DNA of 64,000 nt from an uncultured Eubacteriales bacterium (lineage in GTDB: Bacteria; Acidobacteriota; Aminicenantia; Aminicenantales; Aminicenantaceae). The notes below the pieces were generated by a model, which worked only from the letters and a program-made list of their open reading frames with translations, was not told the origin of the DNA and searched no databases. Shown here one piece after another: positions 1,284 to 38,727 of this stretch. The DNA is taken from the NCBI GenBank assembly GCA_964406575.1, contig CAYOSH010000003.1, positions 64,447 to 128,446 of the forward strand. Reading direction: 5' to 3'. Position numbers and translations under genes: made by a program. Every line of letters begins with the position of its first letter. Position 1 is the first letter of the stretch.

Positions 1284-1356
1284 GGTCGACCTCTCAAAAA
1301 AAATTTCTCTCATTATATTCCTTCGGAATCCTGAATGCAAAATGAGATTGTCTAAC

Positions 1357-1525
1357 GTAAGCATCCTTATTTCCATGATAAGGGCATTAGAGGCAAAAAA
1401 GAGCGAGTCACTGTCCTTATGAGTCGGATGGTGGCGGGTGGGGGGGTATTCGACGAATATGGACTGTGACGAACTCCTGCTATTATTATTTGACTTGAGA
1501 GCATCACGGAAATAAGGATGCTTCC
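1357..1525 (+). mobile_element. MITE-like repeat, family A copy 1 (169 bp)
   Basis: Termini are GTAAGCATCCTTATTTCCATGAT ... ATCACGGAAATAAGGATGCTTCC. A perfect 9-bp direct repeat TTGTCTAAC lies at 1348-1356 and 1526-1534. Near-identical to the copies at 28932, 43808 and 55437. Confidence 0.85.
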
Positions 1526-1560
1526 TTGTCTAACAGATTTGAATAAGCTCCCTTGTCTGC

Positions 1561-11733: not shown

Positions 11734-11969
11734 GTAAACATCCTCAGAACCGTGATGGCACATGCCCAATCACGTTATTTGGTGTTCCAATTTTTTGGTG
11801 GAGAAAACCGTGAGAAGGGCTGGACGGGCATGGTGTATCTCCCGAGTGGGAGATGTGAGGGAAGCCCGGATCCGAGCGAAGTTTCCTCGCTGCGGAAACT
11901 AAGTGTGTTTTCGAAATCTCCAATTGGAACTTTCGGAACGCCATTCATTACAGTTTTGGGGATGCTTCC
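11734..11969 (-). mobile_element. MITE-like repeat, family B copy (B3, 236 bp)
   Basis: Plus-strand termini are GTAAACATCCTCAGAACCGTGATGG ... GGGGATGCTTCC. Flanking 9-mers CTTACATAT and CTTGCATAG match 7/9. The internal core GTCCAGCCCTTCTCACGGTTTTCTCCAC (minus strand) is shared with B1. Confidence 0.75.
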
Positions 11970-12099
11970 CTTGCATAGGAAAAGATATCCTTTGCATACT
12001 CACGGGACACTGATGATCTGGGGTGTGTTTTCAGTTTTTGTAATGGAGAAATAACACAAGCTATCTTGAAAAAATGCGAGTCCTCCAGAATAGTCTAAC

Positions 12100-12343: not shown

Positions 12344-13198
12344 TTATGCCGGGAGAGGTTCAAAAGTGTACTTCTCTTTGATTTTTTTGACTCTTCCAAA
12401 ATAATAGTGGGGATCATGATCGAATGCGATGATCCAATTTTCTCTCACAGCTTGATCGAAAAACCAGGCCTTCGTTTCAAGGGTTGTGACCGGGAAGAGG
12501 TCATAGCTGGCGATATACCCTAATCCTAAATGGGCAGATGTGGGAACCATATCCCCGAAAAAGACGAGTGTATCGTTTCCCGACTGAACTTTCACACCTT
12601 GATGGGAGGATGTATGCCCGGGCATGAGTATAACATGAACACCGTTCACGATTTTTGTGTCGCCCTCCACCAGATGGAGTCGGCCATGTTCCTCGAGGGG
12701 CAAAAAAGTGTCTCTGAAATAGCTCACTCTATCCCTAGAAAGAGGATTCAAAGCGTATTTCCATTCGCCCTTTTGGATGATATAGGCAGCATTCGGGAAT
12801 GTGGGAACGACATCGCCTTGGGCGTTTTTACGCGTATTTCCTCCGCAATGGTCAAAATGGAGGTGGGTGTTTATCACATGCGTTACCTCTTCAGGGGTAA
12901 ATCCAATGGCTTTCAGCGATTCGAGCAGACCAGGTTCTCTCTCGATGGCATAGTATTGGGTGAACTTGGCAGGGATCAAAGTGCCAACCCCTGTATCGAT
13001 AAGGATCAGCTCTTTATCAGTTTTTATAAGGATGGAGTTAAGCCCCATTTGAATTCTGTTCGATTCATCCGCAGGGAACAGCCTTTCCCACAGAGGTTTG
13101 GGAACGACTCCGAACATGGCTCCCCCATCGAGATAGAAGAATCCATCTCTAAGTCCATAGACTTCAAATCGACCTAAGGTGATCTTATGGGGGGTCAT
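12344..13198 (-). CDS. MBL-fold metallo-hydrolase
   Basis: HLHFDHCGG (HxHxDH) motif, later PGHTSSH. The start overlaps the nuoI stop by 4 nt. Confidence 0.8.
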   Translation of the reverse strand: MTPHKITLGRFEVYGLRDGFFYLDGGAMFGVVPKPLWERLFPADESNRIQMGLNSILIKTDKELILIDTGVGTLIPAKFTQYYAIEREPGLLESLKAIGFTPEEVTHVINTHLHFDHCGGNTRKNAQGDVVPTFPNAAYIIQKGEWKYALNPLSRDRVSYFRDTFLPLEEHGRLHLVEGDTKIVNGVHVILMPGHTSSHQGVKVQSGNDTLVFFGDMVPTSAHLGLGYIASYDLFPVTTLETKAWFFDQAVRENWIIAFDHDPHYYFGRVKKIKEKYTFEPLPA

Positions 13199-13668
13199 CT
13201 AATGAGCTTGTCCAGATCGTAGATCAATGCCTCTCGCGAATACTCTGCGATCTCGACTTCGTCGGTATCCATTCGGATGGCATCTTCTGGACAAGCCTCA
13301 ACACAAAATCCGCAGAAACAGCACCGCGTGAGATCGATGATGAATGTGGAAGGGTATTTCTGGATTTGCGGATCGGGATCCTCTGTGGCCTCGATGTAGA
13401 TACACTCGGATGGACAAACTGTAGCACACAACATGCAGGCTACACAACGAGGCTTGCCGTCTTCACGCTTCATCAACCGATGGAGGCTGCGATGTCTGGT
13501 TGCGATTTTGACTCTCTCCTCCGGGTATTGTATGGTGACAGCCCCTTTCCTTTTGGTCTTGATCCGGAAGAGTTTGAGGATATGGAAATACATGTTCACG
13601 ACAAAATGCCGTGTGGTGATGATACTTCCCTTAATAAGTTCGATGAAATATCCAAGTGCTTTTATCAT
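13195..13668 (-). CDS. nuoI: NADH-quinone oxidoreductase subunit I
   Basis: Two 4Fe-4S motifs, CVACMLCATVCP and CCFCGFCVEACP. Position is after nuoH. Confidence 0.9.
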   Translation of the reverse strand: MIKALGYFIELIKGSIITTRHFVVNMYFHILKLFRIKTKRKGAVTIQYPEERVKIATRHRSLHRLMKREDGKPRCVACMLCATVCPSECIYIEATEDPDPQIQKYPSTFIIDLTRCCFCGFCVEACPEDAIRMDTDEVEIAEYSREALIYDLDKLIR

Positions 13669-13672
13669 TTGT

Positions 13673-14746
13673 TTATAAGCTCATCAGAATAGCTGTTGCC
13701 ACAATATTAAAGAGGCTCAATGGGATGAGCAATTTCCATCCCAAATCCATCAACTGGTCGTAGCGGAATCGCGGGTAGGTCCAGCGAACGAGAATCTGGA
13801 ACCAACAGAAAAAGAAAACTTTGAGATTGAAGGACAAAACCTGGAATGCCACTACGACCCCATGAGGGAGAAGCCACTGACCACCCCAGGGAAATTGGAA
13901 TCCATCCGGGTACAACCACGGGACTTGCCACCCACCAAAAAAGAGTGTTGTGAGCAGACAAGCGACGATCAGGACCTTCATAAAGTCCGTGAACATGTAA
14001 AGCCCCCACTTGAGGCCGCTGTATTCTGTAAAAAAACCGATGATTTCAGACTCCCCCTCCGGAAGGTCAAAGGGAACTCTCTCTGACTCAGCCACTGCTG
14101 CGAAGAGGAAGATGATGAATCCTAAGGGCTGAAGCAATATCCCCCACTTCGGCAACCATTCAAAAAGGAGCTGGCCCTGGTAGTGAACGAGATTGGACAG
14201 TGTGAGTGAGGGGAACACCATGATCAGACCAATCAGTGACAGCCCGAGAGCTACCTCATAAGAGACGAGTTGGGCAGCTCCTCTTAAGCCGCCCAAAAGG
14301 GTCCAGCGGCTGTTTGAGGCCCAACCGCTCAAAATGACACCGTAGATACTCATAGAAAGCATGGCCAAAATAAAGAGCAGGCCCACGTTGATATCCAGGA
14401 CCTGCAGTTTGATCTCTCTCCCCCCCAAGCGGAGGCTATCTCCAAAGGGGACAACCGCTACCGTAACCAACACAAAAAAGAATGACAGGAACGGAGATAG
14501 ATTGTGGATGAATCTTCTGGAGAAGACTGGAGTGAAATCCTCCTTGAAGAACATTTTTATCGCATCAGCAAAGGGCTGAAAAAGGCCGATGATCCGGAAC
14601 TTCCAGATGTTGGCCCTGTTCGCTCCAATCCTATCCTGCATGACAGCGCTTTCTTTCCGTTCGGCCCAAGTTAGATAGAGCGCGAGCACCAAAAACCACA
14701 TCATGGCAAAGACGACCTTGATCAACACGATAAGTATGTCTATCAT
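13673..14746 (-). CDS. nuoH: NADH-quinone oxidoreductase subunit H
   Basis: Polytopic, 357 aa. Sequences AERKESAVMQDRIGANR and AESERVPFDLPEGESE are hallmarks of NuoH/ND1. Confidence 0.9.
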   Translation of the reverse strand: MIDILIVLIKVVFAMMWFLVLALYLTWAERKESAVMQDRIGANRANIWKFRIIGLFQPFADAIKMFFKEDFTPVFSRRFIHNLSPFLSFFFVLVTVAVVPFGDSLRLGGREIKLQVLDINVGLLFILAMLSMSIYGVILSGWASNSRWTLLGGLRGAAQLVSYEVALGLSLIGLIMVFPSLTLSNLVHYQGQLLFEWLPKWGILLQPLGFIIFLFAAVAESERVPFDLPEGESEIIGFFTEYSGLKWGLYMFTDFMKVLIVACLLTTLFFGGWQVPWLYPDGFQFPWGGQWLLPHGVVVAFQVLSFNLKVFFFCWFQILVRWTYPRFRYDQLMDLGWKLLIPLSLFNIVATAILMSL

Positions 14747-16290
14747 TGTCTCTTCTTAAAGAACGCGATTTCTTTACCCATTTCTTCCAGAATCACAGCC
14801 GGCGACGTGAATGTTTTGACGCTGAAATCAGCATTCATCAATTTTGCCAAGTCGATGAGGATCTTCCATTCGGGTTGTGACTCCCCTATTCCTTCAAGGA
14901 CAGGCGCAAATTCCTGAACGATCCCGTCCACATTCGTTAAAGAGCCGGACTTTTCTGGAATCACAGCTGTCGGTAAGATAATATCCATGAGTGCATCCAA
15001 ATCACTGGAGTGAGGGGTTAAAAGGATTTTGGTCTCTATTTTATCGAGATGAGTCTTGACCTCCCCGGAATCTGTCTGTCCAGTTAAAAAGCTTCCGAAT
15101 ATCAAGAGTATATCTGTATTCCCTGAAAGTTCACTCCAATCCAGCGGCCTTAAATCAAAACCGATCTCTACTGCACCTTTTCTGTTTGGCGTGCGTTCCG
15201 CTGTTAGCAGCACGTCATCCGCTTCTCCATGGGGTGGATCTACAAAGAAGATATTCTCTGCCTGGAAGTAATCGACAAACAGCTTTTTCAAAAGGAACAA
15301 TTCCTCATTGGTCAACCACGTATTCATGATGATGGCTAAATGAGAGGTATTATCCATATCTTTGAGTCGCCTCATTTTCTTTGCGATCAAAGGAATTGCA
15401 CTTTCCCAAGAGAGTTGAGTGTTATCGTTATTGAAGATAATTTTATCGCACCGATTTTTATCAATGTAGGGGTATGCATATCGCCCGATATCACAGATCC
15501 AATAGCCATTGATATCCGGATTTGTCCTTGAATTGACCCGGAATACGCGCTTGGGCACAGGGAAACGGTGAAAAGCGCTGTTGTAATGGATCGAGACACT
15601 GCATCCGCGGCTGCAATGAGGACAGATGGAATCGCCTTCCGCAAGGAACCAGCTCCTTGTCTTGAACCGAAAATCAGAATCGGTAATGGCGCCCACGGGA
15701 CATATTTCAGCCAGGTTCCCCGAATAATTGTTATCAATATTTATCTCATCCAGGATATTGACCTCTGTATGGTTACCTCTCTCAAAAACACCCATTTCGC
15801 GGGTGCCCGTGACTTCCCGCAAAAACCGCACGCAACGCCTGCACAAAACACAGCGCTCCTGGTCGTGGATGAGATTTTTGGCGATCTGGGCTTTCTTACG
15901 CCTTTTCTCCTTGACTTCTCTGAACTGACTATCGAAAAGCCCATACTCCTCATAATAGTCTTGGAGTTTGCACTCTCCCGCTTGATCGCAGATGGGACAA
16001 TCCAGAGGATGTTCAGCGCAAAGGAACTCCAAAACACCTTTTCTCGCCTCGACGACTCTCTCGTTCCTGGTGAAGATCTTCATTCCTTCTCGGACTTGTG
16101 TTGAACAGGCCAGCTCGAGCTTGGGCACGCCTTCTATTTCGACCAAGCACATGCGACAGGTTCCCTCAGGCTCAAAGGCAGGGTGATAACAGAGATGGGG
16201 GATTGGAATTCCCGCTTCTTGGGCAGCCTTGAAGATAGTCGCACCCTCTTTGGTTTCAACCGGTTTTTCATCTATGAAAATCTTTACCAT
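14743..16290 (-). CDS. nuoG: NADH-quinone oxidoreductase subunit G, short form (515 aa)
   Basis: Start moved to MVKIFIDEKPVETKEG, 14 nt after the nuoF stop. N-terminal 2Fe-2S and 4Fe-4S Cys motifs (CYHPAFEPEGTCRMC, CPICDQAGEC) are followed by a truncated molybdopterin-like domain. Confidence 0.85.
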   Translation of the reverse strand: MVKIFIDEKPVETKEGATIFKAAQEAGIPIPHLCYHPAFEPEGTCRMCLVEIEGVPKLELACSTQVREGMKIFTRNERVVEARKGVLEFLCAEHPLDCPICDQAGECKLQDYYEEYGLFDSQFREVKEKRRKKAQIAKNLIHDQERCVLCRRCVRFLREVTGTREMGVFERGNHTEVNILDEINIDNNYSGNLAEICPVGAITDSDFRFKTRSWFLAEGDSICPHCSRGCSVSIHYNSAFHRFPVPKRVFRVNSRTNPDINGYWICDIGRYAYPYIDKNRCDKIIFNNDNTQLSWESAIPLIAKKMRRLKDMDNTSHLAIIMNTWLTNEELFLLKKLFVDYFQAENIFFVDPPHGEADDVLLTAERTPNRKGAVEIGFDLRPLDWSELSGNTDILLIFGSFLTGQTDSGEVKTHLDKIETKILLTPHSSDLDALMDIILPTAVIPEKSGSLTNVDGIVQEFAPVLEGIGESQPEWKILIDLAKLMNADFSVKTFTSPAVILEEMGKEIAFFKKRQ

Positions 16291-16304
16291 CGGCTCTTTT
16301 GATC

Positions 16305-17558
16305 CTATCCTTGACCCTTGATGTGAGATTCCAGTTCCTCCCTGAATTTCTGGGTGATCGAAAGTATGGGCATAGCTGCTGCATCCCCCAGAGGACACAG
16401 GGTTTTTCCCAATATATTGGATGCGACCCGGATGATGTTATCGATATCTCCTTTTTGGCCTGCGCCATTCGCCATACGATCAACTGTCTTCCGAATCCAG
16501 GCATTTCCGATCCGGCAAGGGGTGCACTGTCCGCATGATTCATGGGAATAAAACTTCGCCACAAGCCTCAACACTTCGAGCATAGAGGTATCCTGGTCAA
16601 TAACAATAATGGCGCCAGACCCGAGCATGGATTTTGCCTCCACGAGAGAATCAAAGTCCATGGCGACATTTATTTCATCAGCCGTCAACACGGGCGCCGA
16701 CATGCCGCCGGGGATGACCGCTTTCAGCTTTTTCCCCTTTTTCATGCCCCCAGCATGTTCAAAGATGATATCCTTGAGGGGCGTCCCAATCGGGAGTTCG
16801 TAAATCCCGGGCTTGGCGACCATCCCGCTCACACCAAAAATGCGTGTTCCTCCATCCTTGGGCAATCCCTTCTGTTTGAACCAATCTGCTCCATTCAAGA
16901 TGATGAGAGGGACATTGGCCAGGGTCTCGATGTTGTTGATCACCGTAGGACATTTAAAAAGGCCAATAGAAGCCGGGAACGGAGGCTTGAGCCGGGGATT
17001 CCCCCGCTTCCCTTCGAGGGATTCCAGCAAAGCCGTTTCTTCACCACAAATGTATGCGCCTGCTCCCCTATGGACATAAACATCGAGGTCAAAACCACTC
17101 CCCAGAATGTCTTTTCCGAGATATCCTTTTGCATAAGCTTCGGCTATCGCTTCTTCAAGTCTGAGCGCTATAACCTCATATTCTCCGCGGATGTAGATGT
17201 ACGCAGTGTGAATCCCAACACAATAGGAGCTGATGATGATCCCTTCCAGCAGCAGATGCGGATTATGCGTCATGATGTAGCGGTCTTTGAAGGTTCCAGG
17301 CTCGCCCTCATCGGCATTTACACATAGATACTTGGGTTTATCCACAGTTTTCGGGACAAATCCCCACTTGACTCCTGCAGGAAAGCCTGCGCCTCCTCTT
17401 CCTCGCAGATTCGCGGCTTTAACTTCCTCAAGGATCTGCTCAGGAGTCATTTCTTTCAGCGCTTTCTGAATAGCCCGGTATCCATTTTTTTGGATGTAGA
17501 TATCGATGGTGTGGGCGTTTTCCACGTCAAAAAGCTTTGTTAAAAGTTTCTCTGCCAC
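16305..17558 (-). CDS. nuoF: NADH-quinone oxidoreductase subunit F
   Basis: GRGGAGFPAGVKW (FMN/NADH site) and ESCGQCTPCR (N3 cluster). Confidence 0.92.
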   Translation of the reverse strand: MAEKLLTKLFDVENAHTIDIYIQKNGYRAIQKALKEMTPEQILEEVKAANLRGRGGAGFPAGVKWGFVPKTVDKPKYLCVNADEGEPGTFKDRYIMTHNPHLLLEGIIISSYCVGIHTAYIYIRGEYEVIALRLEEAIAEAYAKGYLGKDILGSGFDLDVYVHRGAGAYICGEETALLESLEGKRGNPRLKPPFPASIGLFKCPTVINNIETLANVPLIILNGADWFKQKGLPKDGGTRIFGVSGMVAKPGIYELPIGTPLKDIIFEHAGGMKKGKKLKAVIPGGMSAPVLTADEINVAMDFDSLVEAKSMLGSGAIIVIDQDTSMLEVLRLVAKFYSHESCGQCTPCRIGNAWIRKTVDRMANGAGQKGDIDNIIRVASNILGKTLCPLGDAAAMPILSITQKFREELESHIKGQG

Positions 17559-17567
17559 TGTTTTTTC

Positions 17568-18041
17568 TTACTCTAAATGATCCAAAATTTCATCGATTGT
17601 TTTTTTACTCAGTTTTCCGTAGTAGTCAAAATTGACCATCATACAAGGCGCATGCTCACAAGCACCCAGGCACTCAACTGTTGTGAGCGTGAATTTTTTA
17701 TCTGAGGTTGTCTCACCCAGATCGATTCCCAGCTTATCCTTCAAGTAGTCGATCAGAGATTGTGCTCCCAAGAGAGAGCAACTCAGGTTGGAACACACCT
17801 GGATGTGATACTTTCCAACTGGCTGACGGTTGTACATGGTGTAGAATGTGACGACTTCTCTCACTTGGATGGGTTTTAGCTCCAACAGGCCGGCGAGCTG
17901 AATTTCCTCCGCAGCAGAAATATGACCAATCTCTTGCTGGACAAGATGCAGAACTGGAAGGAGAGCCGCTTTTTTTTGAGGATAGCGAGCGATAACTTCT
18001 GCTATTTTCTGTTTTGTCTGATCTGAAAATTCAGGACTCAT
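17568..18041 (-). CDS. nuoE: NADH-quinone oxidoreductase subunit E
   Basis: Start moved to MSPEFSDQTKQ (ATGA overlap with the nuoD stop). Thioredoxin-like 2Fe-2S motifs CSNLSC and VECLGACEHAPC. Confidence 0.88.
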   Translation of the reverse strand: MSPEFSDQTKQKIAEVIARYPQKKAALLPVLHLVQQEIGHISAAEEIQLAGLLELKPIQVREVVTFYTMYNRQPVGKYHIQVCSNLSCSLLGAQSLIDYLKDKLGIDLGETTSDKKFTLTTVECLGACEHAPCMMVNFDYYGKLSKKTIDEILDHLE

Positions 18042-19363
18042 CTGTCCAATTCTCCTCCAATCATGTTCAGACCGCCAAATGTCGGTATAATATCCGCAAT
18101 ATAATGACCCCGGATCATCTCCTCTAGAGCAGCAACGATATGGAAACAAGGCCCTCTGAGGTGGAGACGGTAGGGCTTATCGGTCCCGTCAGAGACAATA
18201 TAATAGCCCACTTCGCCGCTTCCCCCTTCTACGGAGAAATAAACATCTCCTTTAGGAGGGCGGATCCCATGCCCTTTCATGAAAAACTTGAAGTGATTGA
18301 TCAGACCTTCAATGCTTGTATAGGTATCTTCTTTCGGAGGGACGATGTATTTTTTCCCTTTGGTCAGGATCCGAGGGTAAATATCTTTTTCAGATCCTTC
18401 GAGATTGGGTGAGAGTTTGATCTTGGCCTCTACCTTTTTCTCTCTTGATGCTTTGATGGCTTCAGCTGGCTCAAAGACATCAGCAATAACTGCGGGAGGG
18501 GATACGGGTACTTTTTTCCGCGCCTGTTCAATGATCCTGAGGCTCTGTTCCATCTCCTTCATGCGGACCATATACCTGTCAAAGTTATCGCCATTATCTC
18601 CAAGAGGAATTTCAAAACGCACTTGATCGTATGTGCAATACGGATGTGCTTTTCGCACATCATAAGAGACTCCGCTCGCCCTCAGACAAGGGCCGGTGAA
18701 TCCATAGTTGACGGCCATCTCCGGGCTCACCACAGCGACATCCCGTGTTCTGTTCAACCATATTTTATTCTTATCCAGCAGGCCGTGGCAGTCTTTGAGC
18801 AAGGCCCGGGCGGAATTTATGGCTTTGCCCAACAAAGGATTGATCTCAGGGTGCAAATCCGCACGAACGCCTCCGATACGGATGTAGGATGTCGTCATCC
18901 GGGCTCCGGTGGTCTGTTCGATGACATTCCAGATTTCTTCTCGCGCTTGAATATAATAGAGAAAAGCGGTGAACGCTCCACATTCCATGGTCATGGCGGC
19001 AAGCGCCGTGAGGTGGTCCGAGATTCTGGAAAGCTCACTCATGATCACACGGATGAACTGAGCCCGCTCTGGGGCCTGGATGCCAAGCATCTTCTCCATG
19101 GTCATCACATAGCCCAGGTTATTGATCAAAGGAGATACATAATTCAACCTATCTGTGTAGGGGAGTAAATTGAAATATGTTTTGTGCTCGCACGTTTTCT
19201 CAAAACCTCTGTGAAGATACCCCACTTCCAACTCAGCGTTCAGGACTTTTTCGCCGTCGAGTTCGAGCATGATCCGTATCGTTCCGTGCATGGCGGGGTG
19301 CGAAGGTCCCATATTGATGAGCATACTCTCTTTGCTTGCTTCTTTCTGAATTCGGTATGTCAT
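18038..19363 (-). CDS. nuoD: NADH-quinone oxidoreductase subunit D (441 aa, with an extra Lys-rich segment)
   Basis: NMGPSHPAMHGT, LHRGFEK, and a C-terminal IPTFGGLNMIGGELDR. Confidence 0.9.
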   Translation of the reverse strand: MTYRIQKEASKESMLINMGPSHPAMHGTIRIMLELDGEKVLNAELEVGYLHRGFEKTCEHKTYFNLLPYTDRLNYVSPLINNLGYVMTMEKMLGIQAPERAQFIRVIMSELSRISDHLTALAAMTMECGAFTAFLYYIQAREEIWNVIEQTTGARMTTSYIRIGGVRADLHPEINPLLGKAINSARALLKDCHGLLDKNKIWLNRTRDVAVVSPEMAVNYGFTGPCLRASGVSYDVRKAHPYCTYDQVRFEIPLGDNGDNFDRYMVRMKEMEQSLRIIEQARKKVPVSPPAVIADVFEPAEAIKASREKKVEAKIKLSPNLEGSEKDIYPRILTKGKKYIVPPKEDTYTSIEGLINHFKFFMKGHGIRPPKGDVYFSVEGGSGEVGYYIVSDGTDKPYRLHLRGPCFHIVAALEEMIRGHYIADIIPTFGGLNMIGGELDR

Positions 19364-19845
19364 TCTTTTCTTCTCATCGGGATAATGGGCTGCCGTTTGC
19401 GCAGAGGATAATCCTTGCGCAGGGGATGTCCCTCGAAACCGTCGTACATGAAAAGCCGGACCAAATAGGGATGCCCTTCAAAGTGGACACCGAACATATC
19501 GTAGACCTCTCTCTCCAGCCAGTTGGCATTTTTCCAGAGGGGCGTTAACGAATCGATCCGGAGGTCCTTTTCTGACAGTCGAATCTTGATCCGCAATCTG
19601 TCGTTACTGGCCAAGGAGAAAAGATGGTAGACCATCTCAAAGCGCATTTCATCCCTGATATAATCCACACAGGTCAGATCCAGAAGCATAGTGAAGGAAT
19701 GGGGCGTTTTCATCAAATAGACACACAAATCCTGCAGGAATTCTCTTTCAATAATGACAGTCTCATCCCCCAACAGGGCAGAAATCTCTTTAATCTCCTC
19801 GGGAAATTTTTCTTTGAGAATTTCGGTTATTTTCTTCTTTTCCAT
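19360..19845 (-). CDS. nuoC: NADH-quinone oxidoreductase subunit C
   Basis: 161 aa. ERE(V)[12 protein letters not shown] motif. Lies between nuoB and nuoD. Confidence 0.88.
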
Positions 19846-20300
19846 CGGAATTCTTGCTCTTGATTCTGGATCTTTTCCTGGAGTTTAACGATCGCATCCA
19901 AGAACGTCTCAGGGCGAGGAGGACAGCCCGGGACATAGACATCCACGGGGATAATGTTGTCGATGCCCTGGACGACGGCATAGTTGTCATAGATGCCCCC
20001 GCTCAGGGTGCACGCCCCAACTGCAAGCACCCACTTCGGCTCACACATCTGGTCATATATGGTTTTCAACACCGGAGCTTCTTTCTGCGAGATCGTTCCA
20101 ACAACCATGATCAGGTCCGCTTGCCGGGGGGAGAACGTCGTCAATCCGCAGCCGAAGCGGTCAAAATCCCAGTGGGCACATGCTGTAGACATGTACTCCA
20201 TACCACAACAGGCTGTGATGAAGGGATAGTGAAACAGCGAGAACTTGCGCCCCCAACCAATCACATAATTGAGTTTTGTGGTGATCCAGCCGCCGCTCAT
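19827..20300 (-). CDS. nuoB: NADH-quinone oxidoreductase subunit B
   Basis: N2-cluster motifs [15 protein letters not shown] and PGCPPRPE. Confidence 0.92.
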
Positions 20301-20696: not shown

Positions 20697-20938
20697 TGTC
20701 TTTTTATAAAGGCATAGATTTTATAAAAATAAAATGAACAATGCAATCATTTTGATATTTTTTTTACAAAAAAATTGTGGACTGCCATACAGGCGTCTTG
20801 ATAGACGCTGACAGAGCCATTTTGGACCGGAGAGATTCGACCGCTATAGAAAAAAGGCTGGAGAATTTGTTAAAATGGATGAGATCTATTCAAAGGTTGG
20901 AGTATGTTGAGTGAGAAGGATTGACCTCATCAATCGGA

Positions 20939-22558
20939 ATGAAAGATAAAGTTACGGCATTCCTTTGGCTTATCGGGCTGCTTCTCTGCGGAACTCTTTC
21001 CTCCCAGAAGTGTTCGCCGTCGAAGCAAGCTTATCCTGAGAATGTCATTCTTGTCACTCTCGATACACAGAGGCCAGATTTCATTGGCGCCTATAATCCA
21101 ACAAAGGCCTCAACACCCAATATAGACAGTCTAGCTGCAAACGGGATTTTGTTCGATAACTGTTACAGCCCTATTCCTATCACCCTCCCTGCTCATGCCT
21201 CGCTCTTTTATTCCCTCCCTCCGCATGAACTCGCACTCTACAACAACGGGCAAGTATTTAAAAACGAAAGAGATCTTGTGTCCCTTGCACAAGTATTCAA
21301 AAAAAAGGGCTTCCAAACCGCAGGATTCGTTTCTCTGGGAGTGCTCAAATCCAAATTTCGTCTGGCTGAGGGATTCGATGATTACGAGGACAAACACCCT
21401 GAAAATCGTTGGTACCTCCATGCGGAAGAGGTGAACGCAAGAGTATTTCCATGGCTGGACAAGAACAAGGAAAATCGCTTTTTCATCTGGATTCACTATT
21501 CTGATCCACATGATCCCTATGCGATCCCAAGCTTGCCTCCCGATCTTCGAATCCGTTTCAATGGCAAACCCATCTGGGATATCTGTGTCCAACGAGAAGA
21601 ACGCCTGTCCCTGCGGTTTATGCTGCACGCGGGGAAGAACACGATCGAATGCGTCACCTTGAATCCCTATCCCGATTCCCAGGACGAATTTCGCATAAGT
21701 TTAAACGAAGTTTATTATGCGCCATCAGAAGACATCAAGATCATTTATGAAGGGATGAATGTGGTCAAAAAAGACGAGCAGACCAGCCTCCTGATCAAAG
21801 AAAGAGGCAGGATCTTGATCGACAACCCCGGAAACACCCAAGAACTCCGAATGGAAGCCACCGGGAAAATATACCTGTTGGCGCAGGAAAAAGTACACGC
21901 TTATAAAGAGGAAGTGGAGTATTTGGACCGCCAGATCGGGCTGTTACTCAAGAAACTCGATCAGAGCGAGCTATTGGACAAAAGCTTGATCGTTTTGGTG
22001 GGGGACCATGGCGAGGGATTGGGTGATCATAGGACTCTTCTCGGAGAACCACACTTTGGACACATCCACTATCTGTATACAGAATATCTGAAGATCCCCC
22101 TTATCTTCTATAATCCCTATTGGGAAGAAAAAGGATCAAGAAATAGTGAGCAGACGACGATCCTCGATATTGCCCCTACGATTCTGGCCATCATGGGTTG
22201 GAAAAAAATGCCCTTTCACAAGGGATTTAACCTTCTCAAAACAGGCGAAGAGAGAACTCCGATCATATTTGGTGAAACTTACAGGCCAGAATCCACAAGA
22301 GATAGGTTTTCAGGGCTCCAATACCCATGGCATCTCATTTTCACACCTAGCCGGGATAGATTCGAGCTTTACAATATCAGGGATGATCCGGCTGAACAAA
22401 CAAATGTTTTTGTTCAAGAAAGAGAAAACCCAGATGTTGTCAAATTCCGGAAAATCGTTAAAAAGTACGCGCTCGAAATACTGAGTACAAAAAAGGATAT
22501 CGAACTAGATCCCAAAAGCCTGGAGATGTTAAGGTCCCTCGGCTACATCAAAAAATAA
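20939..22558 (+). CDS. Sulfatase-fold (alkaline-phosphatase superfamily) lipoprotein, Thr-nucleophile variant, paralog 1
   Basis: Start moved to the ATG giving MKDKVTAFLWLIGLLLCG (lipobox). LVTLDTQRPD metal site. PITLPAHASLF occupies the position of the C/S-x-P-x-R motif, with Thr codon at 21182-21184. GDHGE is present. C-terminal LRSLGYIKK. Confidence 0.8.
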   Translation: MKDKVTAFLWLIGLLLCGTLSSQKCSPSKQAYPENVILVTLDTQRPDFIGAYNPTKASTPNIDSLAANGILFDNCYSPIPITLPAHASLFYSLPPHELALYNNGQVFKNERDLVSLAQVFKKKGFQTAGFVSLGVLKSKFRLAEGFDDYEDKHPENRWYLHAEEVNARVFPWLDKNKENRFFIWIHYSDPHDPYAIPSLPPDLRIRFNGKPIWDICVQREERLSLRFMLHAGKNTIECVTLNPYPDSQDEFRISLNEVYYAPSEDIKIIYEGMNVVKKDEQTSLLIKERGRILIDNPGNTQELRMEATGKIYLLAQEKVHAYKEEVEYLDRQIGLLLKKLDQSELLDKSLIVLVGDHGEGLGDHRTLLGEPHFGHIHYLYTEYLKIPLIFYNPYWEEKGSRNSEQTTILDIAPTILAIMGWKKMPFHKGFNLLKTGEERTPIIFGETYRPESTRDRFSGLQYPWHLIFTPSRDRFELYNIRDDPAEQTNVFVQERENPDVVKFRKIVKKYALEILSTKKDIELDPKSLEMLRSLGYIKK

Positions 22559-22596
22559 ATTTTTCTTGCCACACAGGCCGGGAGGGTGTCTATAGT

Positions 22597-22668
22597 GTAA
22601 GCGCAACCTTATCTGAGCTGGCACATCACAGACCGTATCCCTAACGCCTCCGGATTAGAGATGCTTTC
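22597..22668. repeat. Possible 72-bp mini-copy of the repeat superfamily
   Basis: GTAAGCGCAACCTTATCT... at the left end and ...CCGGATTAGAGATGCTTTC at the right end resemble the family termini. The flanking 9-mers do not match. Confidence 0.35.
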
Positions 22669-22724
22669 GACCTAAAGAGAGCTCTTTGACTTATCCAGAA
22701 TTGCCAGTATAATTGGAAGTTGAA

Positions 22725-24752
22725 ATGAAGCCCGATAGACAAGAAAAAAAAATTTTTGGACAGGATTTGGACCGGGACTGTTGCCATTTACTTTTGCTGA
22801 TCCTACTTCTGCTTGTGTCCCTAAAGTTCCAGTCTTGCACGAGAGGCCCAAAAACCGAGGGCAACCTGTTCCGGATCATAGACCATTTCGAAGCTCTAGA
22901 CTTTCACGAAACTGCTATCGATGCATCCGTACTCATGCGGGGACCCAAAGATGAGCAAACACCCCTTCCCTCCCCTATTGATCCTGAATTAGCAAAATTC
23001 ATCACGGAAAACCTGAACTGGGACAACACTAACGGAAGTCCCGTCCACCCAAACAAACTCAAAATTAAAAAACGCCCCGCAAAAGGCTCAGCAAGAGGCC
23101 TCCGCTCCAAAAATGTCATTCTCGCCCCTCCTCCGACTTCCTTTTCTATCACCAAGAAAATATCCAAAAATTCGGCGCTCGAGTTTGGCTACGGAATTGT
23201 GAATGAACAGTGGGAGAACGTTAAAGGTGAAGTCTCTTTCACAATAGATATTGCAGATATCAAAACACAGACCAAACAACGTTTGTTCCACACAACACTG
23301 AATCCAGAGCTAAGAGACATGGACAAACAATGGTTTGCCGAAGAGATTGATTTGGGAGAATATGCCAAACAAAATATGACCATCACCTTCAGCACCTCTT
23401 TCAAAAATGCCGACACAAACAATTGCTATTCGGCTTGGGTGAATCCGTTATTCCGGGAAAAACAGAATAAAAAGCTAAAAATTAATGTGATACTGATATC
23501 TATGGATACACTCAGAGCCGATCACCTTGGATGTTATGGCTACACGAGGAACACGAGCCCCAATCTGGATGCGATAGCCAGGGAAAGCGTCCTTTTTAAA
23601 CAAGTTATTTCCCAGGCCCCCTACACAGTCTCATCCCACATGTCGATGCTCACATCCCTCTATCCATCCTTCCACAAAGTCAATCTGATCCAAGAAAGCA
23701 CCATGAATCCAAAAATCAACACCCTTGCCGAACTCCTCTACAACAACGGGTACCGGACATGGGCCATTGTGGGTGGCGGCCAGGTCAGCTCGGATTATGG
23801 ATTCTCTGAGGGCTTCGAAACATACATCGAATTCACCTCTCCCCACCGGGATGTTTGGAGAAAAATCCAAGAAACTATCGGCTTTATCGAAAAAGAAAAG
23901 GCCAACAATTTTTTTGTTTTTATTCATTCCTATAAACCCCATGCACCTTACAATCCTATCCCTCCGTTCGACACCATGTTCGACCCGGAATATGATGGTC
24001 CCGTATCTGGGAGCATCGAGCAGATCGAGGCCATCAACTCAGGTGAGATCGAAGTGACCCCGGATGACATCGCCCACCTTATGGCTCTGTATGACGGGGA
24101 TATTCGAGAAATGGATGACCAAATCGTGGAGCTGTATGACTACTTAAAAAAAGAAGGTTTGGATCGAAGGACTCTGGTCGTTTTCACCTCTGACCACGGA
24201 GAAGAATTCGGAGAGCACGGAAAGGTCGGGGTGCACAGCCATACAGTGTACGACGAACTCCTCCGCGTCCCTTTAATCCTCCGGCTTCCGGATAAATTGC
24301 CCCCAGGAACGACCTGGGAAGACCAAGTCCGATCGATAGACATCCTCCCTACCATATTCGACTTGATCGGGATTGATTTGAAAGAGACCCCTATCCAAGG
24401 AGAATCCCTTCTTCCTCTCATAAAGAAAAGACAAGAGGGGACGAATAGACATGCCTTTAGCGAGAGATTAGCAGCTGACGGCAATCACTACAGATCTCTG
24501 CGCACTCCTCAATTCAAGTACATTATGCAAGACAATAAAAAGAAGGGTATCGTGGACCATTTCTATTATGATCTCACAGATGATCCCCGGGAACAGAACT
24601 CGCTCAAACTTTCCCCGGACAAACTTCGAGAGATGTTCAATCAAATTCTTTTCCTAGTCGAAGAGGGAAAAAAAGTGGACACATTTCAACGGGGGAAGAA
24701 AATCGACGAAGACACGCTGGAAACCCTTAAAGCACTGGGATATATTAAATGA
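22725..24752 (+). CDS. Sulfatase-fold protein with ~250-aa N-terminal extension, Thr-nucleophile variant, paralog 2
   Basis: Signal/lipobox-like LLLLVSLKFQSC. SMDTLRADHLGCYGY. PYTVSSHMSMLTSLYP at the nucleophile position. SDHGEEFGEHG. C-terminal LKALGYIK. Confidence 0.8.
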   Translation: MKPDRQEKKIFGQDLDRDCCHLLLLILLLLVSLKFQSCTRGPKTEGNLFRIIDHFEALDFHETAIDASVLMRGPKDEQTPLPSPIDPELAKFITENLNWDNTNGSPVHPNKLKIKKRPAKGSARGLRSKNVILAPPPTSFSITKKISKNSALEFGYGIVNEQWENVKGEVSFTIDIADIKTQTKQRLFHTTLNPELRDMDKQWFAEEIDLGEYAKQNMTITFSTSFKNADTNNCYSAWVNPLFREKQNKKLKINVILISMDTLRADHLGCYGYTRNTSPNLDAIARESVLFKQVISQAPYTVSSHMSMLTSLYPSFHKVNLIQESTMNPKINTLAELLYNNGYRTWAIVGGGQVSSDYGFSEGFETYIEFTSPHRDVWRKIQETIGFIEKEKANNFFVFIHSYKPHAPYNPIPPFDTMFDPEYDGPVSGSIEQIEAINSGEIEVTPDDIAHLMALYDGDIREMDDQIVELYDYLKKEGLDRRTLVVFTSDHGEEFGEHGKVGVHSHTVYDELLRVPLILRLPDKLPPGTTWEDQVRSIDILPTIFDLIGIDLKETPIQGESLLPLIKKRQEGTNRHAFSERLAADGNHYRSLRTPQFKYIMQDNKKKGIVDHFYYDLTDDPREQNSLKLSPDKLREMFNQILFLVEEGKKVDTFQRGKKIDEDTLETLKALGYIK

Positions 24753-26365
24753 GACGAGATGGTGCATTCATATTCACTGTCATTGTTTTGATTTTTTTTA
24801 TGCTGGTCTTGAGCGCTTGTGCACCTTCCGAGAGTCCAAATGTTATCCTTATCACACTCGATACTTATCGTGCCGACTATATGAGCGCTTACAGCGCGGA
24901 GCTCGTGTCAACACCGAACCTCGATTTTCTGGCTAAAGAAGGAATTCTCTTCATCAACTGTTTCAGTCCGATCCCCATCACATTTCCCGCCCATTCCGCT
25001 CTTTTCTATTCTCAACCACCACACGAACTCAAAATATACAATAATGGAGACACTCTGAGCACTGTTGATCTCAAGTCATTGGCAGAGATCTTCAAGGACA
25101 ACGGCTACGCTACAGGTGCCTTTGTTTCACTGGGAGTGTTATTGGAACGATATGGATTGAGCAAAGGATTCAAAACGTACAGTGACCAATTTCCCAAAAC
25201 GCGCTGGTATCTGACAGCAGGGGAGGTCAATTCCCGGGTATTCCCCTGGCTGGGGAAACAGGGAGAAGGGCATTTCTTTGCATGGATCCATTATTCTGAC
25301 CCGCATGATCCTTACGCACCACCGGATCTCGCCAACGATCTGAAGCTCAGCCTGAATGGCAGCCCTTTCAAAGAGCTTTGTTTGCAAAAAAACCAAGTGG
25401 AAGACATCGCCCTCTCCTTGCATAAAGGAGAAAATATCCTCCGTTTGGAAGTGGCAAACGAATTTGTTCAAAAAGAGGATGCTTTCCTGGCCAGATTAGT
25501 CCAACTTGAGTTGGTTCCCTCTTCACACGTGGAGGAGACGACTCTCCATTTCGGTCGAGGATGGCACAACACCAATAAGGGAAAGCGGATGATGCATTTC
25601 AGGAACAACGCCATTCTGAAGATCCAGAGCCCTAAAGATCAAGAGGGAGTGATCCTGAGGCTTAGGGGCAAGCTGGACATGAGAACAGAAGGAAACAGAG
25701 CATTGTACAGACGGGAGGTGGAATATCTTGACCGTGAGATCGGATCTCTGTTCGATGAGCTCAAAAGACTCGATCTTTTTGACAAAACGATCATCGTCGC
25801 CGTAGGCGATCACGGGGAAGGGTTGGGCGAATATCTCTCATCAAATGGAGCCCCCCATTTCGGTCATATCCACTATCTATATTCGGTCTATCTCAAGGTG
25901 CCGTTGGCCATCTGGAATCCTTCTTCGAAGCGCAAAAACCAGGTCATCTCACGTCCAGCCACCTTGATGGATATCTCTCCGACTGTGCTCGCCCTCATGG
26001 ATTGGAGTATTCCCTCCCAGATGAGGGGGAGAAACTTGCTGGGTGGAAAAAATGGAGACAACACGCCCAGAGAATTATTCTTCGAGACCTATGCACCTGA
26101 AGCCGACTTCAATAGATTTGCCATCCTTGCCTTTCCGCATCATTTGATCTACACGCTGGAGACAAATGTCTATGAACTCTACGATATGTCCAGCGACCCC
26201 AAGGAAAAGACAGATCTCTTTTCCATTCAGGAGCAAAATCCCAAAATTAGGGATCTCAAGCAGAGACTGGACATCTATACGCGAACAGCCCTCGCCAACA
26301 GATCCGTCCAAAAAAAAGACGAGAAGACTCTCGAGATATTGAAAGCTCTAGGGTACATCAAGTGA
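24749..26365 (+). CDS. Sulfatase-fold lipoprotein, Thr-nucleophile variant, paralog 3
   Basis: ATGA overlap with paralog 2. Lipobox LVLSAC. ITLDTYRADY, PITFPAHSALF, GDHGE. C-terminal LKALGYIK. Collinear with paralog 1, including a ~120-aa insert. Confidence 0.8.
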   Translation: MRRDGAFIFTVIVLIFFMLVLSACAPSESPNVILITLDTYRADYMSAYSAELVSTPNLDFLAKEGILFINCFSPIPITFPAHSALFYSQPPHELKIYNNGDTLSTVDLKSLAEIFKDNGYATGAFVSLGVLLERYGLSKGFKTYSDQFPKTRWYLTAGEVNSRVFPWLGKQGEGHFFAWIHYSDPHDPYAPPDLANDLKLSLNGSPFKELCLQKNQVEDIALSLHKGENILRLEVANEFVQKEDAFLARLVQLELVPSSHVEETTLHFGRGWHNTNKGKRMMHFRNNAILKIQSPKDQEGVILRLRGKLDMRTEGNRALYRREVEYLDREIGSLFDELKRLDLFDKTIIVAVGDHGEGLGEYLSSNGAPHFGHIHYLYSVYLKVPLAIWNPSSKRKNQVISRPATLMDISPTVLALMDWSIPSQMRGRNLLGGKNGDNTPRELFFETYAPEADFNRFAILAFPHHLIYTLETNVYELYDMSSDPKEKTDLFSIQEQNPKIRDLKQRLDIYTRTALANRSVQKKDEKTLEILKALGYIK

Positions 26366-26850: not shown

Positions 26851-28869
26851 TTAAAACCGCTGAGTTTCCAAATCCACAGCTTCTTTTCCTCTAAATCGGT
26901 CCTCATCACGCGTTCCAAAACTGAACTGATTGGCGACAGGAACGCCATACTTTTTCGAGTAGATCTCGCACTTTTTAAAGATATCCTCCAGTTCCTCGCG
27001 CGACAGAAGCTCATTCTTGTAATCGAAGAGATACCCCCCCCTTTCGTGCTCGATTTTGGGTTTATTCAAGACGAGCAAAGGACGCAGGATCAATGCATCG
27101 GCTTCGATCTTCTGGCACAAACGGAAATAGTCCTCCAGGTCATCCCTGTTCACCCTCATGGGCATAAAAACCATATGTATCTTGGGGAGATTCCCCTTAT
27201 TTTTCCTTTCTTGGTTCAAGAGAACGAGGTTGGGGATAATCGATTCCCACCGGTCATTCCTTATCTTGGCATAGGTCTCCTTTGTCGCAGCGTCCAGGGA
27301 TATATACAGATATATGGGTTTTCCTGCCAGAGCTTTGATCGTTCTTTGTGTGAATGCCTGGCCGTTTGTGGATATTTCCATGATTTTTTTGTGTCTCGTG
27401 CAATGCTCCAAGATCTGCTCGAACCTCGGATGTAAAAGCGGTTCACCGATGGAGCAGTTGATGAGGAGGCGAGCTGACCGGAAAAAAGGCCCGTACTCCT
27501 CGAAGGTCTTCTCGTCGACGACGGTTTCGATATGCCCTTCTTCTTCCTCCTTCATCCAATCCCAGAGACAGTACACACACGGTGGCTTCATGTTGCATTT
27601 GGCAAGAAGATCTATTCCCAGGTTGAGCGGATAGGAGTTCAACGCTGTTTTTCCCTGTTTCCGTTCCTCATAATTCAACATGGCATTTTTGTGGAAAAAG
27701 CGGAATTCCTCATGGATCTCGTCCTCATCATGGAACTGGATCGGCGAGACCTTGATGCCCAATTCTCTCGGATCCTCGTTGTGGTATTTTTCTGGGAACA
27801 CTCTGTTCAACGACAAAACAAGCTCATGCCCGCTGTGTTCCTTCGGAATAGTCGGGATGGAAGGAAGAGGGAAACTGTAGAAATTCCAGCTTTTGATGAG
27901 AGGATAAGCCCCAAGCTCCTTGCCATCCAGCTCTATTTGGAGGGCCTGTTTGTAATTGGCGTATTCGGAGAAGGCGTAGACAGAGATGAATTTGTGTGAT
28001 TGCAACTGGCACGTGGGCAAAAACACGCGGGCCCTTTGTTTCATCCATGCGTAAGGGAAGAATTCATCATGCTCCCATTCATGCCACCCAAAGTCGTAGA
28101 GCGAACCCTCCTGGTCGGGCAGAACAACCTTAATATTTTTGAGGAAGATACCCAATTTTCTCGAATCGCCACTGAGATCTGGCGGGAAAACACGGTTCAG
28201 CCGCAGTTCTATTTCGAAAGATGTCGAGGAAAAATCGAGAAGGAAATAGTACTTCGTTTCCCCGGGCAGGATCTCTCTCGAGCTGACGGATTTGCCCTCT
28301 GATAAAATCGTCAAGACAGGATTCTCGGCGCCTTCATAAGGGTGCCCTGCCTCGATGAGTAAGTATTTCTCTGTATCTTTGGGGAGGTCGGAAAAAAGAC
28401 ATTTCGCCTTTTTCTTCATCCAGCGGGACGCAATACGGTTTGGGTCTTCACTAGGAGTTTCGGGCAAATACCACCCATCCAGGAAGACTCCGACTTCCGA
28501 AGGGGTGAGAACCTCGACATCTCTCACCATTATTCCCATGTCTCTGGGATCGCCTTCAACCTGGAACGTGCGGTCCAGTTTGATATCGACGTTGAGATCG
28601 CCTGATTCGCTAAAGGCAAATATATATGGGCTGAATGCTGCTTCGACCTCCCGGCTCCCGATCTTCCGGTTGTTCACAAAAACGTCCATGACCGGGATCT
28701 TTTTGCCCGGGAAAGAATGGCCCGCCGTGATGCGAAGGAATTGCTTGCCTGGGTTTGGATAGTCTTTAAGAGATACCGCCGCCTCCTTCGACATCCACCT
28801 GAACGGGCCCTTGTCATCCCGTTCTTCTACATACCAACCGTCAAGGTACTCTTTGTGTGGGGCTTTCAT
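26851..28869 (-). CDS. Radical-SAM-like protein with three N-terminal ~120-aa repeats and a Cx5Cx2C cluster motif
   Basis: Residues 11-121, 131-249 and 260-379 each carry GW(Y/H)..E...(F)RWM.K.A ... D.R.(M/L)G(I). Then come CNMKPPCVYC (nt 27568-27597), IGEPLLHP, ISTNGQ and ISLDAATKETYAKIR, which are typical radical-SAM core motifs. Confidence 0.7.
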   Translation of the reverse strand: MKAPHKEYLDGWYVEERDDKGPFRWMSKEAAVSLKDYPNPGKQFLRITAGHSFPGKKIPVMDVFVNNRKIGSREVEAAFSPYIFAFSESGDLNVDIKLDRTFQVEGDPRDMGIMVRDVEVLTPSEVGVFLDGWYLPETPSEDPNRIASRWMKKKAKCLFSDLPKDTEKYLLIEAGHPYEGAENPVLTILSEGKSVSSREILPGETKYYFLLDFSSTSFEIELRLNRVFPPDLSGDSRKLGIFLKNIKVVLPDQEGSLYDFGWHEWEHDEFFPYAWMKQRARVFLPTCQLQSHKFISVYAFSEYANYKQALQIELDGKELGAYPLIKSWNFYSFPLPSIPTIPKEHSGHELVLSLNRVFPEKYHNEDPRELGIKVSPIQFHDEDEIHEEFRFFHKNAMLNYEERKQGKTALNSYPLNLGIDLLAKCNMKPPCVYCLWDWMKEEEEGHIETVVDEKTFEEYGPFFRSARLLINCSIGEPLLHPRFEQILEHCTRHKKIMEISTNGQAFTQRTIKALAGKPIYLYISLDAATKETYAKIRNDRWESIIPNLVLLNQERKNKGNLPKIHMVFMPMRVNRDDLEDYFRLCQKIEADALILRPLLVLNKPKIEHERGGYLFDYKNELLSREELEDIFKKCEIYSKKYGVPVANQFSFGTRDEDRFRGKEAVDLETQRF

Positions 28870-28931
28870 CGTTTAACCGGAGGCTTATTGTAATTCGCAC
28901 CTATTCCTTTGTCAATTTTCAGAATTGGCAC

Positions 28932-29099
28932 GGAAGAATCCTTATTTCCGTGATAAAGGCATTAGACGCAAAAAGGAGCGAGTCACTGTCCTTATGAGTC
29001 GGATGGTGGTGGGTGGGGGGTCTTCGACGAATATGGACTGAGACGAACTCCTGCTATTATCATTTGACTTGATAGCATCACGGAAATAAGGATGCTTCC
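28932..29099 (+). mobile_element. MITE-like repeat, family A copy 2 (168 bp)
   Basis: GGAAGAATCCTTATTTCCGTGAT ... ATCACGGAAATAAGGATGCTTCC. A perfect 9-bp duplication AATTGGCAC lies at 28923-28931 and 29100-29108. Confidence 0.88.
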
Positions 29100-29108
29100 A
29101 ATTGGCAC

Positions 29109-33707: not shown

Positions 33708-33897
33708 ATCCCAGAGATGCGTGAAAGACTATCATATAATAAAGCCGCTGAAGGAGTGGACTTGGGCTTTTCTTGACATCAAAGGCACATTATGTTACCA
33801 AATCTTGTTCTGTATCAATGACAAGCGTGGAGGCCACGCTCTTTCTAAAAGTCATGGTGTTGACAGAAAGAATCCCCAAAAGGGTCCTTTGGGAGGT

Positions 33898-36387: not shown

Positions 36388-36395
36388 ATAAAAAA

Positions 36396-38699: not shown

Positions 38700-38727
38700 A
38701 ATCGCGAGGTTTTGGAAAACTAGGAGT

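Follow-up and report, generated by a model that had tools for sequence, protein, structure and literature searches.

A MITE family inserted in fixed orientation upstream of predicted promoters in Aminicenantes

Few bacterial mobile elements target the upstream edge of promoters, and this habit has been described only for TnGBS, ISLre2 and ISKra4-group elements. These belong to the elements with prokaryotic Mutator-like transposases analysed by Guerillot et al. 2014 (PMC3942029). In two groups, TnGBS/ISLre2 (p-MULT 3) and ISKra4 (p-MULT 4), insertions fall 15–17 bp, and most often 16 bp, before the −35 box of a sigma-A promoter (PMC3942029). Their direct repeats measure 8–9 bp, with 9 bp given for ISLre2 and ISKra4 in the available entries of the published table, and the inverted repeats of Mutator-like elements are 18–39 bp long with a terminal C (PMC3942029). 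The orientation of TnGBS/ISLre2-type insertions is set by differences between the two ends, and near-perfect inverted repeats lead to insertion in either orientation, as in members of the ISKra4 group (PMC3942029). The p-MULT 3/4 transposase is a DDE enzyme with a C/D(2)H signature and an N1-N2 motif that has been linked to promoter targeting; these transposases have been proposed to contact the RNA polymerase initiation complex and to act through a circular intermediate (PMC3942029).

Small mobile repeats of other kinds offer a second set of comparisons for the repeat described here, which we call Family A. It resembles the classical MITEs (Correia/NEMIS, ERIC, RUP, MITEPsy) in that it is small, non-coding and prone to form strong hairpins, ends in inverted repeats flanked by duplications, and occurs in many intergenic copies. 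The classical MITEs target short motifs (TA, for example) or show no known specificity, and we know of no classical MITE family that lies at a fixed distance and in a fixed orientation from promoter −35 boxes. The REP/REPIN repeats (RAYT, Y1) are likewise abundant, intergenic and palindromic, and are mobilised in trans by a single-copy gene. REPINs depend on an HUH/Y1 enzyme and are not known to make a target-site duplication, whereas Family A is bordered by clean 9-bp duplications typical of DDE transposition.

Four Family A copies of ~168 bp were located in the window, that is, the whole 64-kb stretch of Aminicenantes DNA analysed here, and their edges are sharp in the alignment, with identity dropping abruptly at the ends. 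Copy 1 (169 bp, plus strand) lies at 1357–1525, with the GTAAGC end at 1357 and the GGAAGC end at 1525, between the 9-bp duplications TTGTCTAAC (1348–1356) and TTGTCTAAC (1526–1534). Alignment placed copy 2 (168 bp, plus strand) at 28932–29099, flanked by the 9-bp duplications AATTGGCAC/AATTGGCAC at 28923–28931 and 29100–29108, and the same insertion is carried by metagenome contig L087. Copy 3 (168 bp, plus strand), also delimited by alignment, occupies 43808–43975 between the 9-bp sequences CACGGAAAC (43799–43807) and CAGGGAAAC (43976–43984). Copy 4 (168 bp) is inverted and lies on the minus strand at 55437–55604, with its GT-type end at 55604 and 9-bp duplications at 55428–55436 (TCCATCCTA) and 55605–55613 (TTCCTCCTA). 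A 30-nt interior probe found four exact matches in the window, compared with 0.00 expected from shuffled sequence. The 23-bp terminal inverted repeat reads G(T/G)AAGCATCCTTATTTCC(G/A)TGAT and was matched with three or fewer mismatches at 7 of the 8 ends (shuffles expect 0.00). Position 2 (T vs G) is the sole consistent difference between the two ends, which on their 3' side finish in ...GCTTAC-3' and ...GCTTCC-3'.

All four copies are intergenic. No transposase domain was detected among the ~49 genes of the window (Pfam, complemented by NCBIfam for the four genes without a Pfam domain); nor were tRNA genes found in the window, and a comparison of Family A DNA with PLSDB plasmids returned no similarity. 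The sequence-only reading of this DNA had described four ~168-bp copies at these coordinates, all of them intergenic, with imperfect ~23-bp terminal inverted repeats and with the same flanking 9-mers taken as target-site duplications, and had found no transposase in the window. The alignment, probe counts, gene map and domain searches agree with it on each of these points.

To extend the sample beyond the window, public metagenome contigs were scanned with an invariant interior 23-mer of Family A, which gave 56 loci. Merging repeat sightings of one insertion and including the window copies left 45 independent full-length insertions (~41 beyond the window). Their lengths run from 162 to 171 bp, and pairwise identity has a median of 0.905 and a maximum of 0.98. 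The 9-bp duplication is perfect in 17 of the 45 unique insertions and matches at 7–8 of 9 positions in most others, with a per-position match inside the duplication of 0.84–0.89; before merging (n = 57 copies), 22 duplications matched at 9/9, 16 at 8/9 and 9 at 7/9. The duplications are thus present in the extra copies, so the MITE reading proposed earlier passes this check. Only ~168-bp copies and three truncated ones were recovered in this interior-23-mer scan, which revealed no longer version of the element. The intergenic region of contig L099 that is orthologous to an insertion locus in L118 lacks the copy carried by L118, but identity there is ~71% and the empty site is not base-precise. 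Exact-protein look-ups returned same-strain contigs only (L129, L131 and L087), and the insertions are present in all of them.

Placement relative to promoters was not part of the sequence-only reading and was seen in all four window copies. Each Family A copy was oriented as GTAAGC...GCTTCC, and the directions of the flanking genes were compared. Promoters were called as matches to the sigma-70/sigma-A-type consensus, i.e., they are predicted. Outward from the GTAAGC end follow the 9-bp duplication, 7 nt, a TTGACA-like −35 box, ~17 nt and a TATAAT-like −10 box. The GTAAGC end thus lies 16 bp upstream of the −35 box, which puts the duplicated 9 bp at roughly −51 to −43. Beside copy 1, the predicted promoter (1312–1340, minus strand) consists of the −35 box TTGCAT (1340–1335), a 17-nt spacer and the −10 box TATAAT (1317–1312); the duplication, read here as GTTAGACAA, is followed by TCTCATT, which leaves 16 bp between the element end and the start of the −35 box. 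A gene of the TldD/PmbA family follows on the minus strand, with its ATG at 1283 and an RRKFLQ Tat-like leader. The predicted promoter of copy 2 (28887–28915, minus strand; TTGACA-17-TACAAT, 11/12 matches) lies 16 bp from the left end of the element, beyond the duplication GTGCCAATT and CTGAAAA, and precedes a radical-SAM gene (26851–28869, minus strand). At copy 3, GTTTCCGTG and AAAGCAT lead to a predicted promoter at 43763–43791 (minus strand), with TTGCCC (43791–43786), 17 nt and TATAAT (43768–43763); a beta-eliminating-lyase gene follows, whose true start is likely ATG 43729. Copy 4 faces the opposite way, and its predicted promoter (55621–55649, plus strand; TTGATA-17-TATAAT, 11/12 matches) starts 16 bp from the element end, after TTCCTCCTA and GGATAAT, upstream of nusA (55698–56726) and then infB. 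The 11/12 promoters beside copies 2 and 4 were also those returned by a program-run promoter scan.

The same arrangement was evident across the 45 insertions. Outward positions 17, 18 and 19 from the GT end are T in 41/45, T in 39/45 and G in 33/45, respectively, and positions 40–45 read TATAAT. The trinucleotide TTG stands at offset 16 from the GT (left) end in 31 of the 45 insertions, with four more at ±1, and at the corresponding offset from the other end in one (1/45). When the best promoter match was taken for each insertion, it fell at offset 16 in 25/45, at 15–16 in 29 and at 15–17 in 32, while the best matches at the GG end were scattered across offsets. The GT end is therefore the one next to the promoter, with the GG end on the far side. 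Family A insertions located between co-directional genes take one orientation over the other by 15 to 1. Copies 2 and 4 of the window have opposite orientations and each matches the local gene direction, which ties the bias to transcription and rules out a replication-linked bias.

The predicted promoters could conceivably belong to the repeat itself, which would then be a mobile promoter cassette extending past the −10 box, since most copies have a −35/−10 pair at a fixed distance from one end. We consider this almost certainly wrong. Neither the 7 nt that precede the −35 box, nor the 17-nt spacer, nor any sequence further downstream is related from copy to copy, which indicates that the predicted promoters are independent host promoters and not parts of the element. 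Moreover, the duplication separates the element from the promoter and recurs at the far end of the 168-bp unit. That the repeat is instead a selected cis-regulatory or RNA element (an sRNA, or a terminator/insulator before promoters), distributed by function and not by transposition, is a less extreme idea and, in our judgement, still very unlikely. Besides the fixed position and orientation relative to genes, it could draw on the consensus fold, which is very stable (−72.6 kcal/mol, z = −6.4), as is that of any near-palindrome. A long terminator-like stem, followed by UUUUUU and a C-rich tract, is predicted in the sense direction of the downstream gene, and individual Family A copies may have been secondarily exapted. 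The stems, however, carry no covariation beyond that of shuffled alignments: RNAalifold found 0/28 pairs compensated, and in the full 62-pair structure five pairs changed on both sides, compared with 3.1 ± 1.5 after shuffling (five is reached in 82 of 500 shuffles), with 93.6% of cells paired vs 93.5% in the shuffles. Rfam gave no match at the gathering score across the window and none at E ≤ 1 for copy 1. An RNA gene was rejected on the chance-level covariation together with this empty search. Each copy is also bordered by clean 9-bp duplications of unrelated sequence, and the same ends and placement occur with unrelated interiors (see below), which makes the placement a property of the ends. 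A protein-coding reading was rejected as well, because copies differ in the length of an internal G-run (3–9 nt), which breaks the reading frames between them. The earlier claims that no frame is conserved among copies, that changes in one stem arm are not compensated in the other, and that the repeat is recognised as no known RNA family are all borne out. Family A is a non-autonomous, non-coding MITE with 9-bp duplications; this holds in view of the duplications, the lack of a conserved frame, the chance-level compensation, the empty Rfam search and the absence of a transposase from the window.

To follow the terminal repeat beyond Family A, one genome per species (GTDB) was scanned with a terminal 21-mer, which yielded at least 70 loci. 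The matches listed all lie in MAGs, assigned to Candidatus Aminicenantes or Acidobacteriota or carrying the label 'uncultured Eubacteriales'. The Family A interior occurs in none of the matches listed, and only the terminal repeat is common to them. Among these matches, the repeat bounds other elements of 62–414 bp with 9-bp duplications, all of them short, non-coding and beside housekeeping genes. The 35 end pairs of other families among the matches listed include 10 with perfect duplications and seven with 8/9. In the same set, TTG lies at offset 16 from 28 of 57 GT ends (a further seven at ±1) and from 2 of 16 GG ends. Two orthologous promoters are each occupied by different families in different species: at one, Family A (L077) is replaced by a family of 250 bp (L030), and at the other, Family A (L111) by a family of 230 bp (L017). 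Some of these Aminicenantes contigs are syntenic with the window, with 65–73% nucleotide identity of the genes, which places the window in a member of that group. No coding remnants were found in the larger sister families (up to 531 bp). The recurrence of the same ends and the same rule in many unrelated families indicates that the specificity comes from the transposition machinery and not from the Family A interior.

Older elements are stacked behind three of the window copies. At copy 2 this is a decayed element (29109–29350, plus strand) that belongs to a second family, Family B. It has a terminal repeat of the same type (GTAATCATTTCCAAATCCGTGAAC...) and borders directly on the right-hand duplication, which fits a later arrival of copy 2 at the same position relative to the promoter. 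Next to the right duplication of copy 3 lies a short, decayed terminal-repeat remnant (GTAGGCACATTCACAATCGT...) at 43985–44075 (inner end approximate; plus strand). At copy 4, the end GGAAGTATCGATAAATCCGTGAT of a truncated Family B-like element (55302–55427, left boundary approximate; minus strand) adjoins the duplication. Stacking was thus recorded at copies 2, 3 and 4. Across the 45 insertions, a terminal-repeat-like end exactly abuts the far duplication in five, compared with a background of 0.56% per offset.

In every feature that DNA alone can reveal, Family A agrees with the published signature of the promoter-targeting Mutator-like elements: it has the 16-bp peak, 9-bp duplications, a 23-bp inverted repeat with terminal C and a fixed orientation. 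The likeness to TnGBS/ISLre2 includes 9-bp repeats, inverted repeats within the 18–39-bp range and a −35 box 16 bp from one end of an oriented element, and the Family A end GTAAGCATC has a short resemblance to a streptococcal TnGBS-like end (GTAAGTGTC) among the accessible entries of the published table. These relatives, however, are autonomous IS of 1.4–1.6 kb or ICEs of up to 52 kb with a UPF0236-type transposase, whereas Family A is a gene-less unit of 168 bp whose cognate transposase was not found in the window and related loci. They are hosted by Firmicutes, Fusobacteria and Synergistetes, and Family A by Aminicenantes; typical ISLre2 ends read G.TAGTGT.AA, and the Family A inverted repeat is otherwise unlike them. 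The ISKra4 group (p-MULT 4; ISAcce1, ISCasp2/3) shares the 9-bp direct repeats and the insertion upstream of sigma-A promoters, and its broad range of Gram-negative and environmental host phyla is a further point of likeness. The ISAcce1 end GGGTGCATTTAATTTCCGCGA, as given in the available part of the table, agrees with GGAAGCATCCTTATTTCCGTGA of Family A at ~16/23 positions with one gap, which is a short resemblance. Family A departs from this group in its strongly fixed orientation, unlike the near-perfect-repeat members that insert either way, and in its ends, typical ISKra4 ends being GGGTGC or GGGCGT; the ISKra4 elements are also autonomous, whereas Family A is a miniature for which no transposase was found. 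The Family A terminal repeat is identical to none of the inverted repeats in the accessible Table S1 entries of PMC3942029.

A search for the mobilising transposase covered the window and related loci. Neither the window nor loci L001–L126 (~1 Mb of related DNA) yielded an autonomous partner bearing these termini, and no terminal-repeat pairs 1–4 kb apart enclose a transposase in this material. An all-against-all comparison of the loci revealed no IS-sized repeats; one shared 1.4-kb block is, judging by its motifs, probably a PHP-domain gene. Among the matches listed for the terminal repeat, the inward side of unpaired ends enters ordinary genes and not a transposase, and the large ORF beside a lone end in L021 appears from its translation to encode a membrane transporter. 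The terminal-repeat scan of viral contigs gave 0 matches. The phmmer search space comprised 3586 ORFs from the window and 126 loci; within it, no credible match was obtained with the pHTA426 ISLre2 pseudogene fragments or with the N-terminal ISKra4/ISLre2 fragments contained in the accessible part of the published table. As no autonomous element was found, the enzyme family is assigned from behaviour only.

Based on these results, we propose with a probability of about 0.75 that Family A is a promoter-targeting MITE moved in trans by a Mutator-like transposase of the TnGBS/ISLre2 or ISKra4-group type. The ~168-bp non-coding element would keep only its 23-bp terminal repeats, which would be recognised by a DDE transposase supplied in trans. 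The insertions themselves show that integration makes a 9-bp staggered cut and is site- and orientation-specific relative to predicted sigma-70/sigma-A-type host promoters, with the GTAAGC end placed 16 bp upstream of the −35 hexamer. Renewed use of the same promoter shifts older copies upstream and builds the stacked arrays. The behaviour of the element suggests a mobilising enzyme of the p-MULT 3 (TnGBS/ISLre2) or p-MULT 4 (ISKra4-group) type. Landing just upstream of the core promoter would presumably spare both genes and core promoters, which would account for the high copy number. Three points speak against this explanation: no autonomous element or Mutator-like transposase was found in the window or the ~1 Mb of related loci, the terminal repeat is identical to no accessible published inverted repeat, and the orientation is strongly fixed although the 23-bp ends differ consistently only at position 2.

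The sequence-only reading had favoured a different source, namely a non-autonomous derivative of an IS66-family or ISBst12-group IS moved by an IS66-type transposase. Its description of a non-autonomous element with inverted repeats and 9-bp duplications stands, but the derivation is not supported, given the length of the duplications, GTAAGC at one end only and no IS66-like protein found in ~1 Mb of related DNA. There is some resemblance, in that Family A has inverted repeats within the 20–30 bp of these elements and duplications of similar size. ISfinder gives 8–9-bp duplications for the IS66 family. In the published description, IS66-family ends read GTAAGCG and the duplications measure 8 bp (PMC11946415). 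IS682 of E. coli Sakai has GTAAGCGT... at both ends and an 8-bp duplication (TCTTTCTC), and on the Geobacillus plasmid pHTA426 a copy of the ISBst12 group is bounded by GTA(T/A)CTATTCAGCCC ends and has an 8-bp duplication (GACGAGTT). One Family A end starts with GTAAGC like these IS66 and IS682 termini, but the likeness stops after 6 nt: where IS66 has GTAAGCG at both ends, Family A has GTAAGCA at one and GGAAGCA at the other, and its duplications are of 9 bp, compared with 8 bp in the examples checked. Promoter-specific, oriented insertion as seen for Family A is unreported for IS66 in the literature examined, and the observed specificity fits another transposase class exactly (PMC3942029). 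Since phmmer with IS682 TnpA/B/C and the pHTA426 ISBst12-group transposase also returned no match among the 3586 ORFs, an IS66-type origin is unlikely. Somewhat more room can be given to a doubtful but conceivable variant, in which the terminal repeat marks an undescribed Aminicenantes/Acidobacteriota transposon lineage with an enzyme outside ISLre2/TnGBS and ISKra4 that, given the GTAAGC end, could even be IS66-like, targeting 16 bp before the −35 box having arisen independently again. If this were true, its miniatures would have spread to a substantial fraction of the sigma-A promoters and piled up in front of them, and would both shape upstream regulatory DNA and provide a ready promoter map in a phylum without a cultured, genetically tractable member.

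As a promoter-targeting MITE, the reading preferred here, Family A belongs to known kinds, the MITEs and the promoter-targeting transposable elements, and forms no new category. What is new is the occurrence of this rare targeting mode in gene-less miniatures, in many families and in an uncultured phylum beyond the reported hosts; a search of the accessible literature found no description of MITEs of this class or of MITEs in Aminicenantes. Copies of the Family A type explain contig breaks in Aminicenantes assemblies, and the stacked copies are a record of the repeated targeting of one promoter. They also sharpen the question of which part of the initiation complex or of the promoter DNA is read by the transposase. 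Since every copy stands at a known distance from a probable sigma-A promoter, the elements can aid promoter annotation and the correction of start codons in Aminicenantes MAGs.

Besides the copies of Family A, the roughly 168-bp non-coding MITE, the window holds three more elements that carry a terminal repeat of the same type around different interiors (Family B and an element of about 80 bp). They are located at 11734-11970 (237 bp), approximately 51435-51642, and 53167-53246. The 237-bp copy shares 83% identity with an element from another Aminicenantes MAG (locus L029). By eye, a -35/-10 pair beginning with TTG was seen 16 bp past one end of each of the three elements. Examples are CTGATAGTA AATTTGA TTGAAA N17 TATAAA, ahead of the H+-pyrophosphatase gene at 53321, and the predicted promoter TTGCTT-18-TAAAAT, left of the element at 11734.

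In the window copies of Family A, the strand that runs in the sense of the downstream gene (the plus strand of the copy at 55437-55604, for example) contains a long-range stem, GAGCUCGUCACAGUCC...GGACAGUGACUCGCUC, with UUUUUU after it, as well as a C-rich tract, CCCCCCCACCCACCACC. A run of G residues on the other strand varies in length from 3 to 9; this strand folds better, at -73.8 kcal/mol versus -61.9 kcal/mol for the gene-sense strand. The gene-sense stem with its UUUUUU might stop read-through before it reaches the promoter that the element targets.

In a divergent Family A copy from a related locus (L074:4115-4283), both terminal repeats are altered identically at two positions (CTTATTT to CATGTTT), and these paired changes explain the majority of the small number of pairs scored as “compensatory” in Family A. 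Such co-variation of both ends is expected if one transposase must fit both, or if the ends undergo conversion. Another full-length copy (L106:8583-8751 / L092:11419-11587) has non-matching flanks, AACGACCTT versus AACCGAAAA (3/9), which could result from recombination between two copies or from an adjacent deletion.

Ordinary chromosomal genes occupy 13195-20300, 20921-26365, 33721-42698, and 55698-61468, namely a cluster for complex I (nuo), three sulfatase genes, a cluster encoding a molybdopterin oxidoreductase, NrfD and a multihaem cytochrome, and the series nusA-infB-rbfA-DHH-truB; no mobile-element genes were found in these four stretches. The minus strand at 1-1283 holds a gene of the TldD/PmbA family whose product has a Tat-like leader; it starts at 1283 and is absent from the ORF list because it extends past the start of the window. 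The plus-strand ORFs at 120-554 and 555-1019 are probably its shadows. The beta-eliminating-lyase gene is publicly called at 42695-43801 (minus strand, 368 aa), with a GTG start at 43801. That start would precede the predicted promoter (43791-43763) and sit just 7 bp from MITE copy 3. The ATG at 43729, preceded by GGAGG and giving 344 aa with a full Beta_elim_lyase match, is the more likely start.

The terminal repeat and its sister families, which have the same ends and unrelated interiors, are common to Candidatus Aminicenantes MAGs and to MAGs recorded as “uncultured Eubacteriales”. The latter also share orthologous genes with the window, and their label is probably wrong. In one MAG, CAYGBF01 (k=119 assembly), many contigs break off 30-155 bp into a sister MITE of 230 bp, frequently at 96-118 bp, slightly below the k-mer size (loci L001, L017, L022, L032, L035, L039, L046, L051, L054, and L055). 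Such elements therefore break MAG assemblies, and the sister MITE must accordingly be present at high copy number in CAYGBF01.
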